DNA of 64,000 nt, the filler included, from Basidiobolus ranarum (taxonomy: Eukaryota): the NCBI GenBank assembly GCA_040143965.1. It is 4 parts of 4 records of this genome, joined end to end, with 100 filler letters (N's around TTAATTAATTAA, not from the genome) between each part and the next. Parts side by side here need not be neighbours in the genome. Positions count along the whole stretch, not along the records: positions 34,003 to 50,865 come from JASJQH010007202.1; 3 more parts are not named here. The stretch is one strand, 5' to 3'. Below are positions 2,233 to 58,933 of this stretch, piece by piece. How positions within the stretch are numbered: the first letter of the stretch is position 1; every line of letters starts with the position of its first letter. The translations under genes and the position numbers were made by a program. The notes under the pieces are model-generated. The model had not been told where the DNA came from. It ran no database searches and was given only the letters and a program-made list of their open reading frames with translations.

Positions 2233-3873
2233 ATGAAATCTATACTGAGCCAGTTGTCACTTTTTGCCACTGCTCTTCTCACCGTTAAAGCTCAAATCGA
2301 CAAAGAAGGGCAATGGGATTTAATTGGCCACTCTGGTGTGTCGGCCATGCACATGGCTTTAACACATACCAACCATATAATCATCCTTGATAGAGTGCAA
2401 AAGGCCTCTAAACTATATCTTCCTAATGGTGATTTTGCTTGGGGATCAGAATATGATCTAGAAACAAATACTGTCCGTCCTCTAGATTTGAAGAGCAATA
2501 CTTTTTGTTCCGCGGGAGGATTTTTAGCTGATGGGGTAAGTGCGTAAACGGACGAATCTCTATTTCAATACCAACTAATAATTATTTCTTTAAAGACATT
2601 GATAAACGTCTCCGGTTCTCAAGGTAGAAGAAAAATAAAGGAGGGATTTAATGGCATTCGCTCCTTCAAACCTTGTACAAATAAGTTATGCGATTTTAAC
2701 CAAGACTTTAATATCACACTTGATAGTAGACGGTGGTATCCTACTGTTGAGGGCTTAGCTGATGGAAGGCTGATTATCCTGGGTGGATCGACCACAACTT
2801 GTGCTGTCAATACTGTGGAGATTAATGTTCCCTCGTTCGAGCTCTACCCTCCGTTGCCAAATGACCCCTTTAGAGGTCAAAAGGAGTTACAATTATTGAA
2901 GGATACTTTGCCTAACAACCTCTACCCAGCGGCTCATTTACTTCCCAATGGAAATATGTTTATTTTTGCAAGTACCAAGTCAGTAATTTTGAATACCAAG
3001 ACGTGGACTGTAGAAAAAGAACTACCAGATATACCTGGAGGTGTCCGTACTTATCCGCTCACTGGTGCTTCTATTCTTCTGCCTCTCACACCGGAGAATA
3101 AATATCAATCTGAGGTACTGATATGCGGTGGTAGTACCAAATATAACAGAAATAGTCCCGGAATCACTTCATGCGGTCGTATTAACCTCGATGATGAAAA
3201 TCCACAGTGGGAGATGGAAGAGATGCCATTTCCTAGAGTGATGCCCGATATGATGGCTCTTCCTGACGGAAAGCTGATCATATTAAATGGTGTACAAGTC
3301 GGCACTGCCGGATTTAACCGCGCTAGTAATCCAGCCCTGTCACCTATTATCTATGATCCCAAAGCTCCTAAAGGAGAGCGATTCACAACGTTAGGAGCCT
3401 CGAGCATTCCCCGAGTTTATCATTCTACTGCGATTCTTATCCCTGATGGTAGAATATTTGTTGCAGGTAGTAATCCAAATACCGACGCTACATTCGAAAA
3501 AGTCGATTATCCAACCGAGTATCGCATTGAAGCCTTTTCACCACCCTACTTGTTCCCAGAAGTACCACGCCCAATTATCAAGGATGCCCCAGAGAAGATT
3601 ACGTACGGAAAGATCTTTGAACTGGATATAGAGCTCTTTGCTAAGAACCCGGAGATTAAAGTGGTGTTGATTCACTCCGGCTTTGTCACTCACAGTACAC
3701 ATATGAGCCACCGACATGTTACCTTAGAGCAAGTGAAATTAGAGGGAAACAAAATTACCGTGACCGCGCCACTTAATGCCAATATTGCTCCTCCTAAGCA
3801 CTATATGGTATTTGTACTGGAAAACAATATCCCCTCTGTGGCCAAATGGGTACATTTGGTGAACAAACTTTAA
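2233..3873 (+). CDS. Secreted copper-radical oxidase (glyoxal oxidase-like, CAZy AA5_1); intron 2536-2595
   Basis: Signal peptide; motifs SNTFCSAG, RWYPT, NLYP, RVYHS, FVTHSTH and C-terminal APP..YM.F; a GTAAGT...AAG intron joins the two ORFs in frame. Confidence 0.9.
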
Positions 3874-8039: not shown

Positions 8040-8657
8040 TTATGCCAGATCTTCTTTGGCTCCTGGACGCCTCATTGCTAGCTTAATCCCTTGCTTAGCA
8101 AAGGTTTTAGAAAGCTCTGTAATCACTGTAACTCCTGGAAATGATTTTGCCGGATAGACAGTAAACGGTGCTGAATACGTCCAAGCCCGCACTATGGAAT
8201 GTGGGAATTGGTCCGTTTGACTGAGATCAGTAAATAGGAATCTTAAACAATAAGTTCCCTCAGTCCTAATAGATAGATCTGGAAAGATGAAGAAAGCTCC
8301 TTTTTCACCTTTGTCATCAAGAAGATGGTACACTGATGAGACCAAAGACCCAACCAAGTTTCTCGAATATATGCCGGTATCATTTGCCACAAAAGCAGAA
8401 CTTGCCCCTTGTCTTGATTGAACACCAGACGTATTGAGCAACACGTTGCAGTTTGTTTGGCAATCCGAGGACCATAAATCCGCGTGAACAACGAAGGATG
8501 TGGAGTCAATGGGGATGTTATCGGAAGTTGAATTCTCTTTCAATGCGGTCAGTTTTACGATGGGTGGAGGATCTACAGGCCTCCTATCACGTTCACCAAA
8601 ACCACACATCCGGGCACGTTCGGGCTGTTGGACCACTTCCAATTTATATTCAAACAT
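8040..8657 (-). CDS. Velvet-domain transcription regulator (205 aa, apparently intronless)
   Basis: LEVVQQPERARMCGFGERDRRPVDPPPIVKL, RNLVGSLVSS, FFIFPDLSIRTEGTYCLRF, PFTVYPAKSFPG...TELSKTFAKQG make a complete velvet domain. Confidence 0.92.
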   Translation of the reverse strand: MFEYKLEVVQQPERARMCGFGERDRRPVDPPPIVKLTALKENSTSDNIPIDSTSFVVHADLWSSDCQTNCNVLLNTSGVQSRQGASSAFVANDTGIYSRNLVGSLVSSVYHLLDDKGEKGAFFIFPDLSIRTEGTYCLRFLFTDLSQTDQFPHSIVRAWTYSAPFTVYPAKSFPGVTVITELSKTFAKQGIKLAMRRPGAKEDLA

Positions 8658-9667
8658 GAGGGGATGGGACGGGACGTGTGAGCTAGGTTAGATGCACGGT
8701 ATATCTGTATGAATTGGTATATAGAGTATCAGAACTCGCTTGAAGTGGAATTCTACGAGGAAAGTGAACATTATATATCTATGAAGGCCGTCATAGACTG
8801 TCATTCTCTTTGCGTACCGAATGTGATTCTATTCTTGCCTATTCGGGCTCCATCGTTCCATATTCCACCATTCTCTAAGAATCCATTTCTAGAGTTAGAT
8901 ATATCGTACGCGCTATCTTAAATGAAAGTTTACCCTACCAAATAGATTATGTACAACCAGGATTCAGACACAGAAACCAGATTAGGAACAAGTGATTAAT
9001 TTTTAAGATTAATTATGGGCGACTCTGGAAATGAGCGGTAACGAGAAGTTATCACGATCCAGAGGGCCACGTTCTCGGGAGCTGCGAGGGAAATATCGCT
9101 TTTATCTATTTCTCACAATACGCGAAATAAATAGCTTGATTCATAATCTGAGCAATCCATCTAGGCTGGGCTGTCCAAGGAGTCAATATCAGAAGTCGGT
9201 CTCCTCACATGAGTTTGATGAATTCCTGTGCAAATGTTTAAGGATATAGCAAGTATGTTAGGAATGGCCAACTCCGAGCTCATCTGCCGAAACCGTAGAT
9301 CCAGTATGTATCCTGGTAATGGGAGGCAAACCCTTTACTGTCCATCCCATGCCGATATAATCTAAAGATGTCATGATAAGCTTGCGGTACACAGATGCTT
9401 GAGTCAATGGTCAATCTGTAAGAAAGTAGCAAAACTAGTCTCATCAGTGTACATATTTCTTGTGCCAATACAATGAGACCATTCCTAACGCCATATTGTA
9501 TCTAGTACAAGTAGATATTGTCTTCTTTAGCATAAATCAATGCAAGGCGACAGGATGGAGATAGGGATTAGGGCTGGCAGTAAATTGAGTATCCAAGTTC
9601 CGCATTTTCAAACTATTCTTGACTTTATTTACTTTATAGTGTTGACGGATTAATTATCTGGTAATCA

Positions 9668-17025: not shown

Positions 17026-17371
17026 AAGCAAATGCTTTGATAATCCCTGGATCATATTTCGGATAAATCCCTAAAATATCGTGTGTCCCCTTGGTACTAC
17101 CCCCTATCACCTTGGAGTTCCCTGAAATCCTTTGGCATTGGTTAGGGCAGTTCGAAGAAATGATATAAATACTCGAAGTAACTTTCTTTCCCGCTCCACT
17201 CAAGTAGTGTCCACTAACGTATCTGAATTCAATCGGAGCAACTGAAATCCTTCGTTATTACTTCTGAATAACCTGCTTTTCTTTCACATCATTATTTCGT
17301 CCTAGGACAAAAATTTCTACATTTCATAACAAACACTTCTCCCCCCCTTTTATTTCGATTCCATCGTGATT

Positions 17372-19093
17372 ATGCATCTTACTTTCCCGCTACACAGATA
17401 TGTCTTCCAAAATGACGACAAGGCGGTTGAGGCTGCGTTGGGTGGCCCTCTTTACAATCAAATCAATGAAAGAGACCATCGTGGTAATACCCCCTTACAA
17501 TTGGCGTTGATTCTTGGTCGTGTCAGAATCGCCAATATCTTGTTGAACCGTGGCGCTGAATGTCTCGGTCTAAAAAAGAATGGAAACGAGCCTCCTTCCT
17601 GGACCTCACTGGATGAAGCTTGTGCGTTGGAAGATAGGGACCTCGTTCGCAAGGTTCTACAAAAATCTATTGACCAACATGTGCGCGATTGGTGCGCACC
17701 ACCTGTGGATCGTTTGCAGGCTGCAACACCTGGTCCAATGGCTAGTGAGGTACAGGCTAACCCTAACATTCCACCTGAGGGAGGTCCATTGGCTAGACTC
17801 AATCAAGGATTTAACGAGAACACGGATTTGACTCTTCACTGGAAGTTTACTAGTCGTCTTTCCAATGCATTAGCGCGTCACGCATTACCTAGAGATGCGG
17901 TACGTATTCGTAAGAAGTCCTCCTACTTCCGCTTAGACTTTGGAGAGACTTCCCTCGGAATGTTCGGTGGATTTGACAAAAAAGATGAAAGAAGTGCGGA
18001 CGTAGTTAACAAGCGTCGTCAGTATCTTAAGAAGCATGAAATTCAAAGATTCAGTTTGGTCATTCGTGTCGATGATCCTAATATCCCTCAAGCATTCCCT
18101 GCTCCCCCAGCGGTATTCTTGCTGGACCATGAGCGTGAATGGGTTCAAGAGCTCTACCCCGAATTTTATCCCGAGGCATTACTTGAAAGTGCCGTATCCA
18201 CCTGTCTCAGAGCACCCATGGTAAAATACTGGATTCCTTTACGTAACATCGAAATCAAAGAGAAGAGCGAAAAGAAGAAAAAGGGTTTGAGCATGTTGAT
18301 GAAGAAGAAATCTGGATCCACCACTTACAAAATTAAGAATGCTTCCGTGTCTATTCTCATTCGTGAACTTGAGGAGCGCGTCTGTGCTAATGGAGGTAAC
18401 GGTATTGCCTCAAATGCGTTGATCAAAAAGCTGAAAGCCTTAGGCTTCAGTGGCTTAGAGAGCATGTTGGGCGGTGATGGGGACATCCCAAAGGTCAGTG
18501 GTAAGGGTGGGAACGGTTCGGATTCTGAATCAGACTCTGACTCTGAGGATGAGACGAGCAGCAATGTCTCATCCAATGTGAATGGTAAAGATCATGGATC
18601 CAAAGGCAGTCCTGAAGACCCCAACATTCAAGCTGAATTGGTGAAGATGTCTGCCACCGATAGTTATGAAGAATATTTCAGCGGAAATATCAAAAAGAAC
18701 GTTTGCTTCAACAAGGCAGAAACTGTTACACAGTACATCAAATTTGAACTTAAAGAGCCAATCAAAGTCAAATGGGCACCTACCATCCCTGGAAGCACCA
18801 AGAGCAAGAATTTAAGCAACGGCAACTCTGGCTTCCCCATATCCTTCAACCAATTCTCTCCTATTTTCGAGCACCTCTTCAGTGGTGGTATATTAGACTG
18901 GGCTGGCTTTGCAAGCATTTGGAATGAATGTCGCAAGAAAGACGCTACCCCAGGATTCCCAGTCAAAGTGAACATTCCATTACATCCAGTGATCGGAGTC
19001 CGAATTAGCTTTAAAGAATGTCATGTAGGGATGAACCTATCAGATGATCTGTTCCAAGATCAAGGATACGCCAAGAATGTCATTATTCACTGA
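17372..19093 (+). CDS. ANKRD13-family ankyrin / GPCR-chaperone domain protein (intronless)
   Basis: FPLH, DHRGNTPLQLA, WTSLDEA, HWKFTS, PRDAVRIRK....RLD, GFPI, PGFPVKVNIPL, DDLF in ANKRD13 order; acidic low-complexity insert. Confidence 0.75.
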   Translation: MHLTFPLHRYVFQNDDKAVEAALGGPLYNQINERDHRGNTPLQLALILGRVRIANILLNRGAECLGLKKNGNEPPSWTSLDEACALEDRDLVRKVLQKSIDQHVRDWCAPPVDRLQAATPGPMASEVQANPNIPPEGGPLARLNQGFNENTDLTLHWKFTSRLSNALARHALPRDAVRIRKKSSYFRLDFGETSLGMFGGFDKKDERSADVVNKRRQYLKKHEIQRFSLVIRVDDPNIPQAFPAPPAVFLLDHEREWVQELYPEFYPEALLESAVSTCLRAPMVKYWIPLRNIEIKEKSEKKKKGLSMLMKKKSGSTTYKIKNASVSILIRELEERVCANGGNGIASNALIKKLKALGFSGLESMLGGDGDIPKVSGKGGNGSDSESDSDSEDETSSNVSSNVNGKDHGSKGSPEDPNIQAELVKMSATDSYEEYFSGNIKKNVCFNKAETVTQYIKFELKEPIKVKWAPTIPGSTKSKNLSNGNSGFPISFNQFSPIFEHLFSGGILDWAGFASIWNECRKKDATPGFPVKVNIPLHPVIGVRISFKECHVGMNLSDDLFQDQGYAKNVIIH

Positions 19094-21049: not shown

Positions 21050-22904
21050 TTACGCCATGAAGCTCATATTACGCTTCGACTTGGAGTTGTCCACTTGTGT
21101 GCGGGATTTACTAGACTTTTTATGGATGGCTGGTGATTCTGGGATGGTTAAGTTTTTTTGGGATGGTCGGGGTAATGAGTCAGGTCGATATAAGGTTTCC
21201 GGAATGGGAACTGGTTTGTGAACAAGTGTCTGACGATACTCTCGGAGTCTTTTTTCTTCTTCCTTTGCCATCTCCTGGCGTTTTACTTCCCACACAGCGG
21301 CAGTTTGCTCTTTTTCTTGTTGGACTAGAGCCTCCCAATCGTGCCGTTCATGGATACGTTCTTCAGTACTTAAATGAATCGGCTCAGGTATGGTGAAGGT
21401 TCTCTCAGAGTGCTTTGGATACCATACATTACTAAAATCAGGCATTGGATTGGCTCGAGGAATAGTCATTTGTTTGGCTACTTCCTCCTCCTGCTTTAAC
21501 TTACTTTGGAGAAATTTCTGATACGATTCTCCCCGCAGATCAGTTTCGAGACGAAATGGAACAGGTTTGGTGAGTGGGCGAGGTTCAACGAGAGGAAGTG
21601 GATCTGGACAATCCAAATCAAGCATGGGGCGAGCTTGAATATGATGGAGGCGATCGGCTTCCTCTTGTTCACGTTGTAGCTTTTCCCGGAACTTTTGAAG
21701 TTTTCTTTCTCTGATAGAATCCCCAACGAAATGAAAAGGTTCAGGAACCGTAATACCCGGCATGTGAACGTTGACATTCTTCTTCTTTTGGGGTTTGGCT
21801 CGGGTAATTTCCTCCGTCGATGTAGATTTAGGCTTGGGCTTGGTGATGTTAGGTGACCGGGGGATAGTTATTCCGTTTGGTTTGGCTTTTCTAGCAACTT
21901 TCGTATCGCAATGATCAGCAACGTCGAAATCGATTCTACGCTTCTTATTAGGTTTCGTAATATTAGGAGATCTAGGTATAGTAATACCACTCGATTTCCC
22001 AGGCAACTTCTGACTGGCCTTTTTCTCCACGGTCTCGTCTTTATTAACTTTTTGTTTGATCACTTTGGTGATGTTTGGGGATCTAGGTATTGTCAAGCCG
22101 TTTACTCTAAGATGGGTTCGTATTTTCCGTGGCCTAGACTCCTCCTCCGCATCCTCTACGGATTCCTGACTTGGATCATATTTAGCCCTGACTTTAGTCA
22201 TCAATTTGGGAGATCTGGGAACTGTGAGTTTACTCTGAATTATGCTCGCCGATGGTTTTTTGGTTGGCTTGATCTTAAAGCGTTCCGGAGTTTTTTTGAA
22301 AAAGTTATCCACACGTGAGGCCATAGACACAAATGGAGATTTCGGCATAGTGCTGGGTATAGTTGTACCTATCTGACGTCCTCTTACTGAAGTTAAAAGT
22401 CTAAATGGTTTAGGGACGGTAAGATCAAATGGATTCGTACGATTTCTCTTCTTAGTTAAGAGCTCGTCGGAATTATCGATTAGCTCTTGAGATTTGGTTG
22501 TTTGTTGTCTAGAGCGTTTAGAAAAATTCGGTGACCTTGGAACTGTCAATTTTTTGGTGGACCTAACGGGAATAGCTTCACTAGCATAGGTATCCTCCGG
22601 GTGGTCATATGCAGACTCCTCCTCCCAAGAAGTACGTAGGTTAGCAGTTTGGAATATGGTGTTACGAGAGGGGAGTTCCTCAGGAGAGGTGCCGATAAAA
22701 GGATTGTCTAAAATTTTCAAAAAATCATTAGAAACCGAACTGAAAGTGTAAAAAGGGCACCTCTGATTTATAGATTCACTCTAAAGCAGATAGAAAAAAA
22801 TTACCTTGGCCATCATCACTCACCAAGTCTGAATCGTCTTGAAGAGTTGGATTATCTAATTCGTTGGGTATGTCATTAAAAATTCTATCAGACTCTCCAA
22901 TCAT
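21050..22904 (-). CDS. TPX2: TPX2-like microtubule-associated protein; intron 22804-22708
   Basis: Repeated TxPxSP / TxPxPF motifs (LTVPRSPNF, LTVPKPFRL, ITVPEPFHF, LTKPVPFRLETDLRG) and C-terminal KRLREYRQTLVHKPVPIP...LTIPESP. Confidence 0.72.
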
Positions 22905-26540: not shown

Positions 26541-28347
26541 ATGCTCTCCAAAGTTACCACGGTCGGGGCCAAACGTGTCCTCGCTAGGAATGCTCTGAAT
26601 TCGATAGCCAAATCTTCCGCCTCTTTCAAATATTCTACCGCAGTACATAGTCAAGTTTTTGAAAAGTTGGAGCTAGAGGAGGAGAATCCTGGTGTATTTA
26701 ACGGACGTTGGTTCGCAAGTGGCCCCGTTGTCAAGTCAGTAAACCCCTCTACCAATGAAGTAATTGGATCGGTCAGAACGGTAAACTATCCATAGTCTTG
26801 AATGAGTTTGCTTAAGGTGGTAATCTAATGATATCAATTATAGGGTACCGTTGCTGATTTAGACGAAACTCTCAAGGCAACTGAAGAAGCTAAACTCATC
26901 TGGAGAGACGTATGTCATTCAGCAACTCTTTAAATATCAAATATACATTGAAATTTAACCTTTCATTTCATTACAGCTTCCAGTCCCTAAGCGTGGTGAA
27001 ATAGTACGTCAGATGAGGGTGGCTTTGAACGATAAAATCAACGATCTTGGTTACCTCGTATCTCTAGAAATGGGTAAAATTCTCCCTGAAGGCGTTGGTG
27101 AAGTTCAAGAATATATTGATATTGCTGATTATGCCGTCGGCTTGAGTAGAATGATCAACGGCAAGGTAATTCCTTCCGAGAGACCTGGTCATTTTATGAT
27201 GGAACAATGGAATCCACTTGGTACCGTTGGAGTAATTTCCGCATTCAACTTTCCAGTGGCTGTTTACGGTTGGAATAGTGCTCTTTCACTAGTGTGTGGT
27301 AATCCAGTCATTTGGAAAGGTGCCCCAACTACCAATTTGACCTCCGTAGCCGTAACCAAAATTCTCCAGAAAGTACTTGAAAAAAATAACCTTCCCGGAG
27401 CAGTATGCTCCTTAGTATGTGGTGGAGCTGACGTTGGCCAAGCAATGGCTGAAGACCAAAGAATCGATTTACTCTCATTCACAGGCAGCACTAATATCGG
27501 CCGTCAAGTTGGAATGACAGTTCAAAACAGATTTGGTCGTTCTTTACTTGAACTTGGTGGTAATAATGCTATCATAGTAATGGATGATGCCGATATTGAT
27601 TTAGCTGTTCGTTCTATTCTCTTCGCCGCTGTTGGAACAGCAGGTCAGAGATGTACCACTACCAGACGTCTCTTCCTCCACGAAAAGGTTCACGACCAAT
27701 TCATTGAGAAGATGTTGAAGGCATATGAACAAGTTACAGTAGGAGATCCATTGAAAGATAACATCTTATGCGGTCCTTTGCATACCAAGAATGCCGTAGA
27801 GCAATTCAAGAAAGGCATTGCTGAAGTGAAAGCTCAAGGAGGTAAAATTTTAATCGGTGGCAAAGCTTTGGAGGATAGACCTGGAAATTTCGTCACCCCT
27901 ACAGTCACTAGTATTTCTCCAGATGCTCCTGTCGTGCAAAATGAGATATTCGCTCCTATCCTCCATACTCACAAGTTCAGCACCATTGAGGAGGCTATAA
28001 AACTGAATAATGCTGTGCGCCAAGGACTTAGCAGCAGTATGTTTACTACAAATCCTGCCAACATATTCAAATGGACAGGGTAAGCAACACATTCACATTC
28101 TATTTAGTACCTATTGTTAACATTGGTCACTTTTTTCTTTAGTCCTTCTGGCTCTGACTGCGGTATTGTTAATGTAAACATTCCTACCAACGGAGCTGAG
28201 ATTGGTGGCGCTTTTGGAGGAGAGAAGGAAACTGGCGGTGGACGTGAGTCTGGCTCAGATGCATGGCAACAGTATATGAGAAGACAAACTTGTACTATTA
28301 ATTACAGTGGTAAACTACCACTGGCCCAGGGAATTACTTTCGGTTAA
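26541..28347 (+). CDS. ALDH7A1: Aldehyde dehydrogenase family 7 (antiquitin / alpha-aminoadipic semialdehyde dehydrogenase); introns 26781-26842, 26910-26976, 28080-28142
   Basis: [74 protein letters not shown]. Confidence 0.95.
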
Positions 28348-39941: not shown

Positions 39942-42112
39942 TCAAGAGTTAACGTTCTTCTTTCTGCGGAGTTTGCGCCACTGACCGCTGGATAGATTCA
40001 TTTCAAATACAATGTGTTCGAGGACTGTGCGGGAGGTTCGGTTATCGAACTTCTGCTCTTCATTCATAATGATTTGGTAGGTTTCGCCACTGTGGCCAGG
40101 AGGCATTGTAACTGCAATAAAATAGTACGTTAGTTTCGAGTCATGCAGTGCGTTTGAATGGAAGGCTAATACCTGGTTTACCACAAAGGAAATCAATAAT
40201 ACGTTGACGATCGTTTCCATCAAGTACATTAGTATTCTGCAACACAGCAAGCTGGGTTTGTTGCTGTTCTGGGCTAATACTAGTGTCTAGTTGAGGAGAT
40301 GGGATAATGGGTGGCGAGTTAGTAGAATATGAAGGCTCTGGATATGCAGGTGTGCCTAAATGGAGAAATTAACTTTAGAAAGGAACCACTTGATAAATGA
40401 ATCAAGCTTACCGAGTGGATTGTTATCTTCGGTATCTTCTGTACGGTTCATATCATCTGGTCTGACAGCTACAAATAAAGGTTTTAGATGTTACGTTTGT
40501 TCCATGCTATGTGGTATGTGCTGTTTACGTACTATCTTCACTATGCTCTATAATTGCAAATCGTTATGTTAAGCACTGTACCAAATCTTCAATACAACAA
40601 AGTGAAAATTACCTTCACCGGTACCATCAGAGTAAGTATTGGTTGTTACTAATCTAGATGCTGCTCTGGCTTCACGAGCAGCTTCATCTATTCTTCGTTT
40701 GGCGATGCGTTTTTCTTCGCGCTCCTTTTCCCTTTCACGCTTTTTCTCTATCTCAACTTGCTTCTTTTCTTCGGCCTCGTTCTTGCGTTTAAGTCGTTTG
40801 AGTTCTTTCTCATGTACTTCATCTATTTGGATAATTCGAAAAGATATATCATTTAACAGGACGTTCCCTACTAATTAGATAAATAAATAATAACCTTGTT
40901 GTCGCTTCAATTTTGTTTCCTCCTGCTTCTTAATTATAGAACTTCCTTCATCAAGATCGAGTAGTTGAATCCTTTGCTGTCTTTGATAGCCTCCAACACT
41001 ATTACTAATAACACCTATTATGGATTCATACAGATTAAAGTTGAAAGTCATGTATTTTGGATTGAATAACTACGCCTTAATTAGCATACCTTTACTGAAT
41101 GCGTTAGCAGGACCCTTGTTAGGCTGGGCCGAACGTAGGAAAGAGTTTGTAGAATTTTTACGACGGTTGACAAATAACGATGATGACGCGGCAGCAGAGG
41201 ATCTAGCTATACCGATACCAGATACGGGACCAGCTGGTGTGGGATTTGAAGTCATGGCGAAAGCTTGCAATTTATCTTGGCGTTCAGTATGGGCTACACC
41301 TTTGGAGTTTTGAACCTTAAAGTGCATTTTGACGGTAGTTCGTGTTACCTCAGTAGCCTGTAGCGACTTTACAACTCCATTATTAAGGTAGCCGAATTCT
41401 CTAGGGTGGAAACCAACTCCGGTATTTTTTACTAAATAAAATTTTAGTATTCCACAAACGAAATTCGAAATTTGAAGTGAAGTAGTTCTACTATTTTCAC
41501 CCTTAAATTTGGCATACGTACATGAGTCTTTTAACGCGAACAGTGGCTGAGAGCATCGTTCGACAAAAACTTGTGGTTCGAAATTAAATTTGCCAGTTGT
41601 AGAGAATCCATGGAAAATCTGGGCAACTAAACGAACCCATTCGTCTGCATCTTCCACAGCACAACTTAATAGCTAAAAAAAGAAACATAAGATTGTTACT
41701 ATTTTATTTCCAACATGAATTAATAACACCCATGGCCAGATATAACAAGCCGACCGTTGCGGTTAGGTTAAATAACATATCGGGCGGCATTGAAAAATAA
41801 TATCTAGCATATAAAAATTGCTGGATTTGAGTGTCGCATTTATTTTGCCTCAATATTCTACCATTAAAATAAATCTTTCTTTACCTCTTCAATTCCAGAG
41901 CTCATCTCTGTAAGATCACTCTTTTTAATCCCAATTAAAGCAAATAATACTCCAAGTTTGATCTGTGTTTCATAATAATTCCAACGCTCTTTAATGTCAA
42001 CCAAAGTATTATTTGTGAACTCACCAGAAGCAATTGTTGGCGATATCCAGGGATCTGTTAACAGCTGGCCCAACCATTCTTGTACACTTTCGGCTCGTTT
42101 TCGGTCTGTCAT
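39942..42112 (-). CDS. NELFA: Negative elongation factor A (NELF-A)-like protein, ~7 exons
   Basis: N-term QEWLGQLLTDPW...TQIKLGVLFAL...EDADEWVRLVAQIF...FHPREFGYLN...KMHFKV; mid IQLLDLDE; C-term NTNVLDGNDRQRIIDFLCG...YQIIMNEE...HIVFEMNLSSGQWRKLRRK. These correspond to the NELF-A blocks as I recall them. Confidence 0.82.
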
Positions 42113-52209: not shown

Positions 52210-54704
52210 TCAGTTAATAGGTTCATATCCATTCTGTCGTTTCTTGTACCATCTAAATCCTACAAATCCAACTGCACAGATAGCAAGTAATGAAGTAACA
52301 GATATTGCACCGGTTACTACCCACCTCCATCCACTAACTCCGGAGTTCTTATCACTAGGAAGTAGCACTCTATCAATGGCAAAAGCTCTACCATTTCTAC
52401 TAGCTCCAGTGTTGATGATTTTGGCTTGATCATCATAATAGCGTGCACCCTCCACCAAAACTGCAAATCTATTATCGTTAACTTTATGGATAACAACATG
52501 GGTGTTTTCTAATAAAGTTTCATAAGCCATTGCATCCTTGAGCTGCTCCACTTGATCTGGAATAATATGAAGTTGAACTAGCTGTTTTAGAGCTTCTGGT
52601 GATTCATATAATTCGGTCATATTAATGTTACTGAATGCCTGGTCAGTGGGAAGGAGAATCGTATAGGACTGGGTTCCGGTCAGAATATCTTTCAAGCCAA
52701 CATGCTCAAGAGCTTTCATAAATACTGAAGCTTTGGTGCCCAAAATTAATGATTTCAAGGAGATGTCGATTGTAGATGGGACTTGGATTCTATCTACAAC
52801 ATGGACAACACCCGTCGTGATTAGAACATCTTTCGTGACTACCATAGCCTCAGCTCTGTTTTGATTACCAAGCAAAACTTCACTAGCAATGAAAATCTTG
52901 TCTTCTGTGCGAGTGACGTTTAATGGCTTGGAAAAAAGGGTCTTGTATTGGGTGACCCCTTCAGGGATATCTCCAGAATATACTAAATCACCTAGCATGT
53001 GATACCGCAGGGTACTCTGAAGTTCCGAGATGGATTCGGGAAGCAGGAGGTATTCTGAAACTATCCCAAGCTGTGCAAACGCTTCATCACTCGGTACGAA
53101 GAGGGTGATGGATTTACTGTCTTTCACTAAAGAATCGAGTTTGCTCGAATGAACTGCAGATAGATAAGAGGATACCTCCTTGTTGGTGTCAGCAATCTGA
53201 AGGATACTTTTAGGCATTGGTATGATAAAAGAAACTGGATATATAATACTATTTCCGATTTCAATCGGTTCCCCAGAGATACCGATGTCATTAAAGCTGA
53301 TGTTGTCACCATCCTTTTTTACTTGGGTTTTTTGACTAGCCCCCCTCAGTAAATCGGATTTCATTTCGGTTTCCAAAAGCTGACCACTACTGAGATCATT
53401 GATTGCGTATTTCCCTGGTACAATATGGTATTTTAACATATCTTTCAGTTCTTTGGATCCTTTGGGCGGCAAGTTGAATACTTCAACATTAAGGACATGA
53501 TCTGGAGGCGCTAAGATGGTACGAGGTTGATTGATGTCAGTAATCAATTCTTCCAAACCTTCGTCAATAATCATATTAACAAAGTTCGTATAATTGAGGG
53601 CGAGCAGATATTTCTTAGCATTAAACAAAAATCCAGGTGGAAGAATCATATTCTCCAAGTGATGTATAACGCCGTTGGATGCTAAAGTATCCCTTTTTGC
53701 CACGACAGAGCCATCCACCTTCAAGGTGTTGTCAGAGCTGAAGGTAATGGTCAAATTTTGACCATCCAAAGTGGAAACTATATACAGATTTCATTTAATC
53801 TGTTAGTGCTCTAGCATAAAGGAGTAGAGTATTACTTACCTTCAGTTTCTCCAAGAGGAATATCAGAAGTATATACAAGCCCGGGATGAATATGCCGTGA
53901 TAGAATAGATAAAAGGTCTTCTCTTCCAACATCTGCAGTTAAATACTTCATTTCAAGTTCACTGAACTTTTCGAATTGTGTATTGTCTGGCAAAAAAACG
54001 GTGAACGGTTGGGGTTCTGTTAATTTATCGGACAATGAAGCGGTTCCTAATAGTTCTTGAAACTTCGTATATTCCGCCATCGATTCAATAACAGATACTA
54101 ATCATTAAAGTTACGTGTAAGTTAACTTTACTCAACAAAGTAATTAACTACTCTACAGTACCTAAATTTGTGGGAGGAGTCATAAAACCATCAACAGCGT
54201 GAACAACACCTAAAATTCATAAACGATTATTACTTGAGTACAGAGAGAAGTTCAAGTCGTGTAAATACCTCGCGTAGCCAATATATCTGGAGTAGTGATC
54301 TTGACGTCCCCAAATACTATTGTGCCTGCTTCCGTTGCTGATTTCACTTTAAATCGCTGACCTTCTCCCTCACCAAGGGTATTATTGAAACTCAAAATAC
54401 TTTCAATGGTTTGTCCAGGATAAAACTCTTTCGCAAGATGTGTACCATTTACAATATGGTAAAGGAGTTCCCACGGTTCTATAGGTTTTTCACGTTTGGA
54501 AAATGCCTCATTAGTAGGGGCAAGTAGCATGCAATTAGGAAGGCTGTTGATTATAGGGATTAGTCTTGTTTTTTGAAGACTTCGAATTAACGCAGTGAAT
54601 TGAACATCAGCAGAGATTACGTCAATCACCGTAGTAGCTGAGTTGACTGTACTCAGTAAAAAGGCGGAAAATACAATCAGGGCTGGACCTAACAGCCTTT
54701 TCAT
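52210..54704 (-). CDS. Type I membrane protein with multiple fasciclin (FAS1) domains, 4 exons
   Basis: Signal peptide; repeated H1 (TxxxPxxxAF) and H2 (GVxHxxD) FAS1 motifs; C-terminal TM helix and short tail KKRQNGYEPIN. Confidence 0.88.
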
Positions 54705-55061
54705 TGTTATAATGTAGTTGAATGATACAGGAGATAATACAAGTAAAGTTAGACTAGATAAGGAGTAATGGAGAGAATAGGAAAGAATAGGAAAATAGCA
54801 GTCTTGTCCAGGAGGACTTGCTAGAAATAATCATCAAAAGGAGTGACGATTCGTGAGCACGTGAATATGTTTCTTACAATACTATTGATTGCGATCACTC
54901 TAAGCGATTACCACTAAATGAATCAGATTTGGTAAGAACTGCGGTCACTAACTGTATGAGATAATCCAATCTGTGCGAAAGAGAAATCAGCTGTATTTAA
55001 GTAGTATTTAGGTGTAGTTTATTTCAAAAGCACCCATTCAAATGCACCTATGGTATTGCAC

Positions 55062-57259: not shown

Positions 57260-58933
57260 ATGATTGACTTGGCCCATCCTTCTCGGACCACTTCTGTGTG
57301 CCTTGAATCTGAAGAGCCTAATATGGAAATATACTTTTCTACCGCACAAAGTTTCCCTGAAATGGTAGAGCACATGCGGGGTCTATTGGATGCTACAATT
57401 ACGAGTAACATCGACACAGAGCCTAGTTTCACTGCTTCAAAATTAATTATCCACAGTCTTTCTTCACGAAAAGGAAGAGAAAAAAATTCAAGAAGACAGC
57501 GTAGAAGAGTTGATTCGGTAGTTCAAATCGGTCCAGACGGAATGGAAGAGATCGAAAACAAGGTATTTTCTATGAAACTGGGGAAACTGGGCTATTCTTG
57601 ATTCTTATCCATTCATATTGAGCAGAAATGCAAGTCTTCTGGGTCCACTGACCCAAGTTTTTCTGACGTTATCACATCGGTAAAAGATGCTATTGATAAC
57701 AACATTCATCCAGTTCGTATTGTTCAAGGATCTTCCGGTTCATATTTTTGTCTGAATTTGGAGGGGAAAAAAGTTGGAGTGTTCAAGCCTAAAAATGAAG
57801 AACCATACGGGCAACTCAACCCTAAATGGACTAAGTGGGCACATAGGAATCTCTTTCCTTGTTGTTTTGGCCGAAGCTGGTACTGTCAAGCATATATGTC
57901 GTTTCCTCACAATTAATTCTCACATTGGAACAGTTTGATTCCGAATCTAGGGTACATCTCTGAGGCGGGTGCATCATTAATCAATCGTAGACTAAAGTTG
58001 AATATCGTGCCTCAAACAGAGGTAGTGGACCTTGCATCGCCCAGTTTCCATTATAGTTATCTTGATTTGAAAGCATCTCAGCGAAAGAAGCGACCAATTC
58101 CATTGCCTACAAAGATTGGCAGTTTTCAATTGTTCTTGAATGATTACGTTAACGCAAACGCCTTTCTAAGAGACCATCCATGGCCGTACGATTCCATAAA
58201 TCACGACCACCATTTGAACGAGTTGAAAAACTCGCGAGTGGAAATTCGAGATAACATCTCCATTCACTCGTTTAGCTCTGTTTGGACTTCTACGCTACAA
58301 AGGGAATTCCGTGAGCAAGTGCAAAGACTTGTGGTATTAGATTATCTTATCCGGAATACTGGTTAGTAAAGCTTCTTGGTTTATTTTTATTGCGCAAAAC
58401 TAATATTGCTTATAGATCGAGGGCTGGACAACTGGATGATTCGTTATTACTTTGATGATTCTCTAGAGCCACACATTGACATCGCAGCCATCGACCATGG
58501 GTTGGCTTTCCCTTATAAGCATCCTGACCGCTGGCGGTCATATCCTTATGCTTGGCTTAGCCTCCCTTCCTCCTTAATCGGCGGGCCGTTTGTCCCCTCT
58601 TTGCGTACTGAGCTTATAACCTCGCTTACTTCCCATCAGTGGTGGCGAGAAACGTTGAAAGAGTTACGCCAGCTATTTAGTGTGGATCGTGATTTTAACG
58701 AGCTGATGTTTGAGCGACAAGTAGCTCTGCTCAAGGGTCAAGCCTGGAACCTAATCCAGTCACTCACAGCAAATGAAGGGCCTATAGAGCTATGCCAACG
58801 AAAAGGGGTTGTTGTATGGGGAGGTGAAGAAGGTGCGCCTCCAGAAGAAGAGCTGGTTCGAGGAGATCTTGGCAATACTCTCTGGATGCGTGTTGAAACA
58901 CTCCATACACAACCTTGGTTCACTGGATGTTAA
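57260..58933 (+). CDS. LSB6: Phosphatidylinositol 4-kinase type II (Lsb6-like), 4 exons
   Basis: [86 protein letters not shown]. Confidence 0.92.

Follow-up and report, generated by a model that had tools for sequence, protein, structure and literature searches.

Has a fungus kept a component of the machinery that holds RNA polymerase II (Pol II) near promoters in animals? The question is raised by a minus-strand gene at 42112..39942 in a 64,000-nucleotide (nt) stretch of DNA (the window) from Basidiobolus ranarum (Fungi, Basidiobolomycota), a member of a genus that inhabits amphibian and reptile guts. A first-pass annotation of this locus had proposed a full-length NELF-A-like gene, a reading that the profile, pairwise, structural and phylogenetic tests described below all backed: by every sequence and fold criterion tested, the product of the window gene is a real member of the NELF-A family. 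NELF-A is one subunit of NELF, the factor responsible for pausing Pol II in animals. NELF was described as absent from Saccharomyces cerevisiae and Schizosaccharomyces pombe, as the same annotation had stated, in the relevant passages of three sources (Chang et al. 2012, PMC3371697; Vos et al. 2016, PMC4940160; Chivu et al. 2024, bioRxiv 10.1101/2023.02.19.529146), and in published passages, including those of Chang et al. 2012 (PMC3371697), fungi were treated as lacking NELF on the basis of S. cerevisiae and S. pombe alone. Passages of Chivu et al. (bioRxiv 10.1101/2023.02.19.529146) describe NELF-B and NELF-C/D as widespread in eukaryotes and secondarily lost in the two yeasts.

The stop-to-stop reading frames of the window scattered the protein blocks quoted in the first-pass annotation across several frames. 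When the longest of these frames (41672-41073) was used as a query against longer proteins, it returned 2 matches with the precomputed domain PF23553. One, P0001, is the B. ranarum protein K7432_006958 at NCBI, a 491-amino-acid (aa) product listed there as hypothetical and named 'NELF-A N-terminal domain-containing protein' in UniRef; the other, P0002, is the colinear 493-aa protein K493DRAFT_310502 of B. meristosporus. Threading of P0001 through the window produced a split gene of 9 exons and 8 introns (212, 90, 75, 72, 65, 64, 56 and 61 nt from intron 1 to intron 8), with GT-AG ends in 8/8 introns and a joined coding sequence of 1476 nt whose translation was identical to P0001 plus the stop. 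The coding sequence of this NELF-A orthologue spans 39942..42112 on the minus strand, from the start codon at 42112-42110 to the stop codon at 39944-39942, and the suspicion that a spliced gene had been missed by the open reading frame (ORF) track was therefore correct down to the exact ends of the interval. The exon junctions follow the database protein model, the canonical splice sites and the colinearity with the orthologue.

All exons lie on the minus strand. Exon 1 (41885..42112, 228 nt, residues 1-76, donor GTAAAG) holds W22 (42049-42047), the counterpart of human W24, and exon 2 (41522..41672, 151 nt) carries W88 (41639-41637), which lies in the DADEW block and corresponds to human W89. 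Intron 2 (41432..41521, 90 nt, GTACGT...TTTAG) is in frame and free of stops, so that a plain ORF scan reads through it, and its 30 codons have no counterpart in P0002. The 200-aa ORF at 41672-41073, which had been taken as 'exon 2', is in fact interrupted by this intron (41521-41432). Were the intron retained, the NELF-A N-terminal module would gain 30 residues within its extended region. Exon 3 (41090..41431, 342 nt) encodes the end of the NELF-A_N domain (the Pfam match stops at 41379), the HPREFGYLN and HFKV blocks, a disordered linker and the SLF...FLR motif (41186-41133), while exon 4 (40895..41014, 120 nt) encodes the IQLLDLDE motif (40970-40947), counterpart of human VKLLDISE, and the beginning of a long helix. 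This helix, assigned as an ER/K-rich charged helix from its prediction and composition, continues into exon 5 (40613..40822, 210 nt), which is followed by a 15-nt micro-exon 6 (40533..40547) taken from the annotated protein only, and by exon 7 (40412..40468, 57 nt), which lies in an acidic disordered linker according to the gene model and the fold model. Exon 8 (40173..40355, 183 nt) contains linker and two helices of a C-terminal domain that begins near 40281, and exon 9 (39942..40111, 170 nt including the stop) contains the three-stranded sheet of this domain, falls in the stretch aligned to human residues 421-522 and ends in the VFEMNLSSGQWRKLRRK block. All of the blocks quoted from the raw frames, WLGQLLTDPW, IKLGVLFAL, DADEWVRLVAQI, HPREFGYLN, KMHFKV, IQLLDLDE and the C-terminal VFEMNLSSGQWRKLRRK, were found in P0001.

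A profile search, one of the checks proposed in the first-pass annotation, placed the spliced protein in the Pfam family NELF-A_N (PF23553): its residues 19-144 match positions 14-139 of the 146-position profile at 45.2 bits (cut-off 27; E 1.2e-11), and this was the sole family reported for P0001 at E<=0.1. The single frames stayed below the Pfam threshold, exon 1 scoring 17.8 bits on profile positions 14-66 and the next ORF 13.4 bits on positions 74-102, that is, on consecutive parts of the same profile; the B. meristosporus protein scored 48.6 bits. A phmmer search of 177,635 PDB sequences gave 4 matches at E<=1, three of which were human or mammalian NELF-A (6gml_U, 8uha_U and 5l3x_A), the best being human NELF-A 6gml_U at E 7.8e-14 and the fourth a coiled-coil protein at E 0.6. 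The match to 6gml_U consisted of two independent significant stretches, residues 19-185 against human 21-183 and residues 389-487 against human 421-522, the latter with 22.1 bits and an independent E of 6.7e-4 and taking in the human counterpart of the C-terminal VFEMNLSSGQWRKLRRK block. The human NELF-A blocks that the first-pass annotation had listed are visible in this alignment, so its account of them was correct. Profile-profile comparison of 16 fungal-clade rows with 13 animal-like rows aligned 179 columns (P0001 12-191 against P0066 11-193) with a probability of 99.9 and E 2.1e-33; P0066, the animal-like reference row, itself matches human NELF-A end to end at E 5.4e-258. The nearest clusters in the ESM Atlas, also NELF-A_N (scores 0.92 in Nematoda and 0.90 in Arthropoda), agreed with this result and added nothing independent.

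To the sequence matches we added a structural comparison with NELF-A, which had likewise been proposed at the outset. An AlphaFold2 model of P0001, built on a 42-row alignment (mean predicted local distance difference test (pLDDT) score 72.8), contained three confident parts, namely an N-terminal helical domain, one long helix at residues 261-340 and a C-terminal domain at about residues 400-490, joined by low-confidence linkers. Most positions within residues 31-100 and 401-490 had a pLDDT above 90, and the means of 10-residue blocks ranged from 81 to 96 over residues 11-120. At E<=0.001, a Foldseek search of the PDB returned 5 matches, every one of them a NELF-A chain (9j0n_U, 6gml_U, 5l3x_A, 8uhd_U and 8uha_U), with E values of 6e-8 to 3e-6, a probability of 1.00 and target template-modelling (TM) scores of 0.55-0.62. 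The match to NELF-A is thus far beyond chance by family profile (Pfam E 1.2e-11), by pairwise comparison (phmmer E 7.8e-14) and by fold (Foldseek E 6e-8).

According to the sections of Vos et al. 2016 (PMC4940160) that describe the human complex, NELF-C has pockets that receive the invariant NELF-A residues W24 and W89, and the interface buries 3690 Å². W22 and W88 of P0001 align to these two residues in the phmmer alignment, and W88 is nearly invariant across the 42 sequences. The first ~190 residues of the fungal protein are the NELF-A N-terminal helical domain and the 'extended region', in the human fold and with both pocket tryptophans kept.

The tail that follows the N-terminal domain is mostly disordered; it includes the short motifs SLF...FLR and IQLLDLDE, both conserved, together with the ER/K helix and a compact C-terminal domain. 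Nearly invariant positions of the 42-row alignment include P136 in the 'P.E..YLN' block, F164 in 'HF.(L/V)K', D260 in 'LLD' and several positions of the C-terminal domain. In the MAFFT columns, IQLLDLDE is aligned with the vertebrate-like VKLLDISE, and SLF..RRK....FLR shows a weak correspondence, seen in these columns only, to the animal-like PLKGIP...FRSP. Within the HDAg-like, Pol II-binding region, which we take to be approximately residues 89-248 of human NELF-A, colinear homology runs as far as human residue ~193, and beyond that point only the weak SLF...FLR correspondence is seen in the MAFFT columns.

The 80-residue helix (residues 261-340, window 40955-40644 on the minus strand) was predicted as one continuous helix with block pLDDT means of 77-94. 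It had been described as a basic coiled coil, a description that did not survive inspection of its composition: with 56% E+K+R and 16% hydrophobic residues, the region is ER/K-rich and charged, and a charged single helix fits it better than a coiled coil. The fungal clade and some neighbouring rows have the helix, and the animal-like rows are gapped there and have a short basic stretch instead. It appears to be a spacer of the single-alpha-helix kind, specific to the lineage. Comparison of P0001 with its B. meristosporus counterpart gave identities of 76% for the N-terminal domain, 94% for the motif region and 88% for the C-terminal domain, against 53% and 39% for the two linkers, the pattern expected for a gene under selection.

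The C-terminal domain (residues 400-491, window 39945-40281 on the minus strand) was modelled as two helices and a three-stranded sheet, with block pLDDT means of 87-96 over residues 401-490, and its residues F430 and W480 were invariant in the 42 sequences. The domain was also folded alone, from the 114-aa homologue P0124 on a 44-row alignment, with block pLDDT means of 84-96 over residues 41-114. Judged by the aligned sequences, it is homologous to the C-terminus of human NELF-A. Foldseek found 0 matches to the domain in the PDB at E<=0.001, and among the 48,161 chains compared by VIA-align the highest Z was 3.7, none reaching Z>=5; the COMM domain and the TFIIA small subunit, which recurred among the weak rows, lay within the noise, and the domain was assigned to no known fold. 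The NELF-A chains matched by fold in the PDB cover the N-terminal part only, over 177-199 residues. The C-terminal domain, conserved from fungi to humans, thus appears to be structurally uncharacterised in the PDB, and this conservation marks it as functionally important.

Set beside human NELF-A (WHSC2; PDB 5L3X chain A and 6GML chain U), the fungal protein has its parts in colinear order and the same fold across its N-terminal domain as well as the extended region. Each also has the two NELF-C pocket tryptophans, an HF.(L/V)K block and an (I/V)(Q/K)LLD(L/I).E motif, and their homologous C-terminal domains close with the FEMN...GQW block. They differ in that N-terminal identity is only ~20-25%, homology to the human 189-250 stretch is weak, the fungal protein has the 80-residue ER/K helix where animal-like NELF-A has a short basic stretch, and it is without the long proline/threonine-rich spacer that precedes the C-terminal domain in animal-like NELF-A. 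With the automatically annotated fungal NELF-A_N proteins, P0001 shares family, architecture, motifs, C-terminal domain and tree clade; at 491-493 aa, the Basidiobolus proteins fall short of the other fungal relatives (527-626 aa), and identity outside the genus is 25-31%. The NELF-A homologues of Dictyostelium and Chlorella, as mentioned in passages of Vos et al. 2016 and Chang et al. 2012, likewise indicate that NELF is older than animals and was lost in some lineages. In contrast to the protist NELF-A proteins, compared here through their published descriptions, the B. ranarum protein also has its C-terminal domain and mid motifs conserved with animals.

The relatives of the protein are fungal. 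A word-index search with the full protein recovered 11 proteins at E<=0.001, the query included, among 8000 scored candidates, all of them from fungi (2 from B. ranarum, 1 from B. meristosporus, 7 from Glomeromycotina and 1 from Mortierella antarctica), and 10 of the 11 carried PF23553; the Glomeromycotina proteins came from Rhizophagus clarus, R. diaphanus, R. irregularis, Funneliformis, Diversispora epigaea and Entrophospora. An exhaustive search of representative sequences yielded 213 proteins with E<=0.001, of which 58 reached <=1e-10 and 10 reached <=1e-30. The nearest relatives were fungal, at E 1e-47 to 1e-49, compared with 3.5e-14 and 1.6e-10 in the same search for the vertebrate-like representatives P0047 and P0066. 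Repeating the word-index search with the 42-row alignment gave 10 proteins at E<=1e-5, P0158 and P0159 included, and no new named organism; P0159 (1050 aa, E 4.5e-7), whose match covers 5% of the query, was set aside as a probably spurious relative. A tree was built from 44 of the 157 collected proteins, the longer ones, mostly with both end domains, with fragments and remaining rows omitted. Branch support was given by the SH-like approximate likelihood ratio test (SH-aLRT) only, under the 'quick' method, and five long branches were flagged. In this tree P0001 and P0002 belonged to an 18-row clade with an SH-aLRT of 98 that contained every one of the 8 named fungal rows, P0001 grouping with the Mortierella and Glomeromycotina proteins, and the two vertebrate-like rows fell into a separate 16-row clade (SH-aLRT 99).

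Outside the window, B. ranarum has a second NELF-A-like gene, P0003 (NCBI K7432_000208, 293 aa). As annotated, P0003 starts at a methionine aligned with residue 200 of P0002 and is thus without the NELF-C-binding domain in the current gene model. Its identity is 86% with the B. meristosporus protein but only 74% with the window copy, figures that look like the outcome of a duplication predating the species split or of an assembly with two diverged subgenomes. On these identities, the window copy looks like the more divergent of the two B. ranarum copies.

Could the gene have come from an animal, either as contamination of the assembly or by horizontal transfer? NELF-A is best known in animals, and the word-index search brought up only 11 proteins at E<=0.001 including the query, two facts that would suit such an origin. 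They are outweighed by the fungal nearest relatives at 1e-47 to 1e-49, when human NELF-A reached 7.8e-14 even in the much smaller PDB set, by the separation of the fungal and animal-like clades with SH-aLRT values of 98 and 99, by the presence of an orthologue in B. meristosporus, and by the setting of the gene. The window has 38% GC content, the introns are of a short, fungal type (56-212 nt), and the frame at 8043-8687 on the minus strand matches the Velvet-factor domain with 216 bits, a fungus-specific regulator family that serves as an internal marker of fungal DNA. Placement in the tree with fungal proteins and the Velvet-factor gene in the window together argue for inheritance within fungi and led us to reject a foreign origin, which we regard as hardly credible. 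That the gene is decaying or wrongly modelled, either as an annotation artefact or as a pseudogene copy left by duplication, is slightly less far-fetched and still very improbable. The model does contain a 15-nt micro-exon and a stop-free, in-frame 90-nt intron, and the second copy is closer than this one to the B. meristosporus protein (86% against 74%). However, the frame is intact over 491 codons, all 8 introns have GT-AG ends, the 493-aa B. meristosporus orthologue is colinear, and the domains are conserved while the linkers drift.

A more serious alternative accepts the protein as a true NELF-A homologue and makes it an orphan, the other subunits having been lost or having diverged too far, so that it would act, for example, as a stand-alone adaptor for Pol II or chromatin through its C-terminal domain. 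Conservation of the C-terminal domain and mid motifs is at least as high as that of the NELF-C-binding domain, which indicates that part of the selection acts on functions not resolved in NELF structures; the fold-matched PDB chains are confined to the N-terminal part, and the second B. ranarum copy is annotated without an N-terminal domain. Against this, the interface with NELF-C described in Vos et al. 2016 (3690 Å²) is for the most part hydrophobic, and the fungal protein retains both of the key tryptophans, features that would be hard to conserve without a partner. We therefore consider an orphan protein unlikely, though it is the rival that deserves most weight. The explanation we favour, and think probably right as a whole, is that the gene is a NELF-A orthologue inherited vertically within fungi, whose product would dock to NELF-C/D and take part in an AC lobe by analogy with the human protein.

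By that analogy, the N-terminal part of the orthologue would dock into the NELF-C/D horseshoe, and the two together would make up the 'AC lobe' of a NELF complex, following the human structures. As in mammals, where sections of one report (PMC11881899) describe the lobe, in one binding mode, as blocking the Pol II secondary channel at which TFIIS binds, the fungal AC lobe would sit at this channel, compete with TFIIS and help to hold early elongation complexes. The tail may serve as a flexible tentacle contacting Pol II or DSIF. Such a role is reminiscent of the animal protein, whose tail is said to have been described as a 'tentacle' contacting Pol II or DSIF in a 2018 paper on the paused complex. 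The outcome could be a pause that is focal and regulated, or no more than a weak 'proto-pause'. That B. ranarum has a working NELF complex and pauses Pol II in the metazoan manner, as the first reading of the locus had proposed, is plausible by analogy, and draws indirect support only from the conservation of the NELF-C-binding domain with its pair of pocket tryptophans. Because of the subunit distribution and the pausing indices given in passages of Chivu et al., the most likely form would be a fungal NELF of three subunits (A, B and C/D) giving a modest pause; in these passages, pausing indices are higher in species with only the B-C/D core than in species without NELF (bioRxiv 10.1101/2023.02.19.529146).

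Several observations weigh against the favoured explanation. The position of W22 is occupied by F in P0014 and P0016, which belong to a clade sister to Basidiobolus, and the human RNA-binding patch 1 residues R65 and R66 correspond, as read from the alignment, to K64 and S65, with the loss of one basic residue. Human residues 189-250 were aligned only by the MAFFT columns and a weak motif, not by phmmer or hhalign. In addition, passages of Chivu et al. (bioRxiv 10.1101/2023.02.19.529146) restrict NELF-E to metazoans and report the HDAg-like Pol II-binding domain of NELF-A as detected in animals and Capsaspora alone. Any fungal complex may accordingly lack NELF-E and may bind Pol II in a manner unlike the human one.

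Other frames of the window match ordinary fungal genes (glyoxal oxidase, aldehyde dehydrogenase, Ras, STIMATE, fasciclin, ABC transporter and PI3/4-kinase, in addition to the Velvet factor). Among these, a glyoxal oxidase/galactose-oxidase-like frame at 2548-3870 (+), an aldehyde dehydrogenase at 26959-28080 (+), a four-repeat fasciclin frame at 52213-53790 (-) with a second, adjoining fasciclin frame at 54255-54830 (-), and a PI3/PI4-kinase over adjacent frames at 57917-58930 (+) look like ordinary spliced fungal genes. The window also contains an ankyrin-repeat protein with an ANKRD13 C-terminal match at 17330-19090 (+) and a TPX2-domain protein at 21053-22780 (-). Both families are better known in animals and plants than in yeasts, and these two may be further genes kept in early-diverging fungi.

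Since UniRef already names the protein by its NELF-A domain, the gene is not a database novelty, and the advance is incremental, the antiquity and patchy loss of NELF being already accepted and its pre-metazoan origin published. In the open-access and bioRxiv literature searched, a scope outside which the supplements of Chivu et al. lie, we found no discussion of NELF in early-diverging fungi and no report of a fungal NELF-A colinear with the animal protein to the C-terminus; relative to this literature, both points appear to be new. A genuine full-length NELF-A in B. ranarum means that this portion of the pausing machinery, if no more, has survived in fungi outside the yeasts. Since Basidiobolus, Mortierella and Glomeromycotina have a colinear protein, with the NELF-C interface intact and the tail motifs and C-terminal domain conserved, the full-length subunit becomes at least as old as the fungus-animal ancestor, and it is close to shown that full-length NELF-A is not a holozoan innovation and that its NELF-C-binding domain, tentacle motifs and C-terminal domain were all present in that ancestor. 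These organisms also provide culturable fungi for asking whether NELF-dependent pausing is ancestral to opisthokonts. We extend this only tentatively, and with less than even expectation, to the fuller proposal that the fungus-animal ancestor had full-length NELF-A and that early-diverging fungi run a NELF of A, B and C/D, probably with no E, and NELF-dependent promoter-proximal pausing. If this is true, the statement that fungi lack pausing would apply only where a lineage has lost it, as in the two model yeasts.

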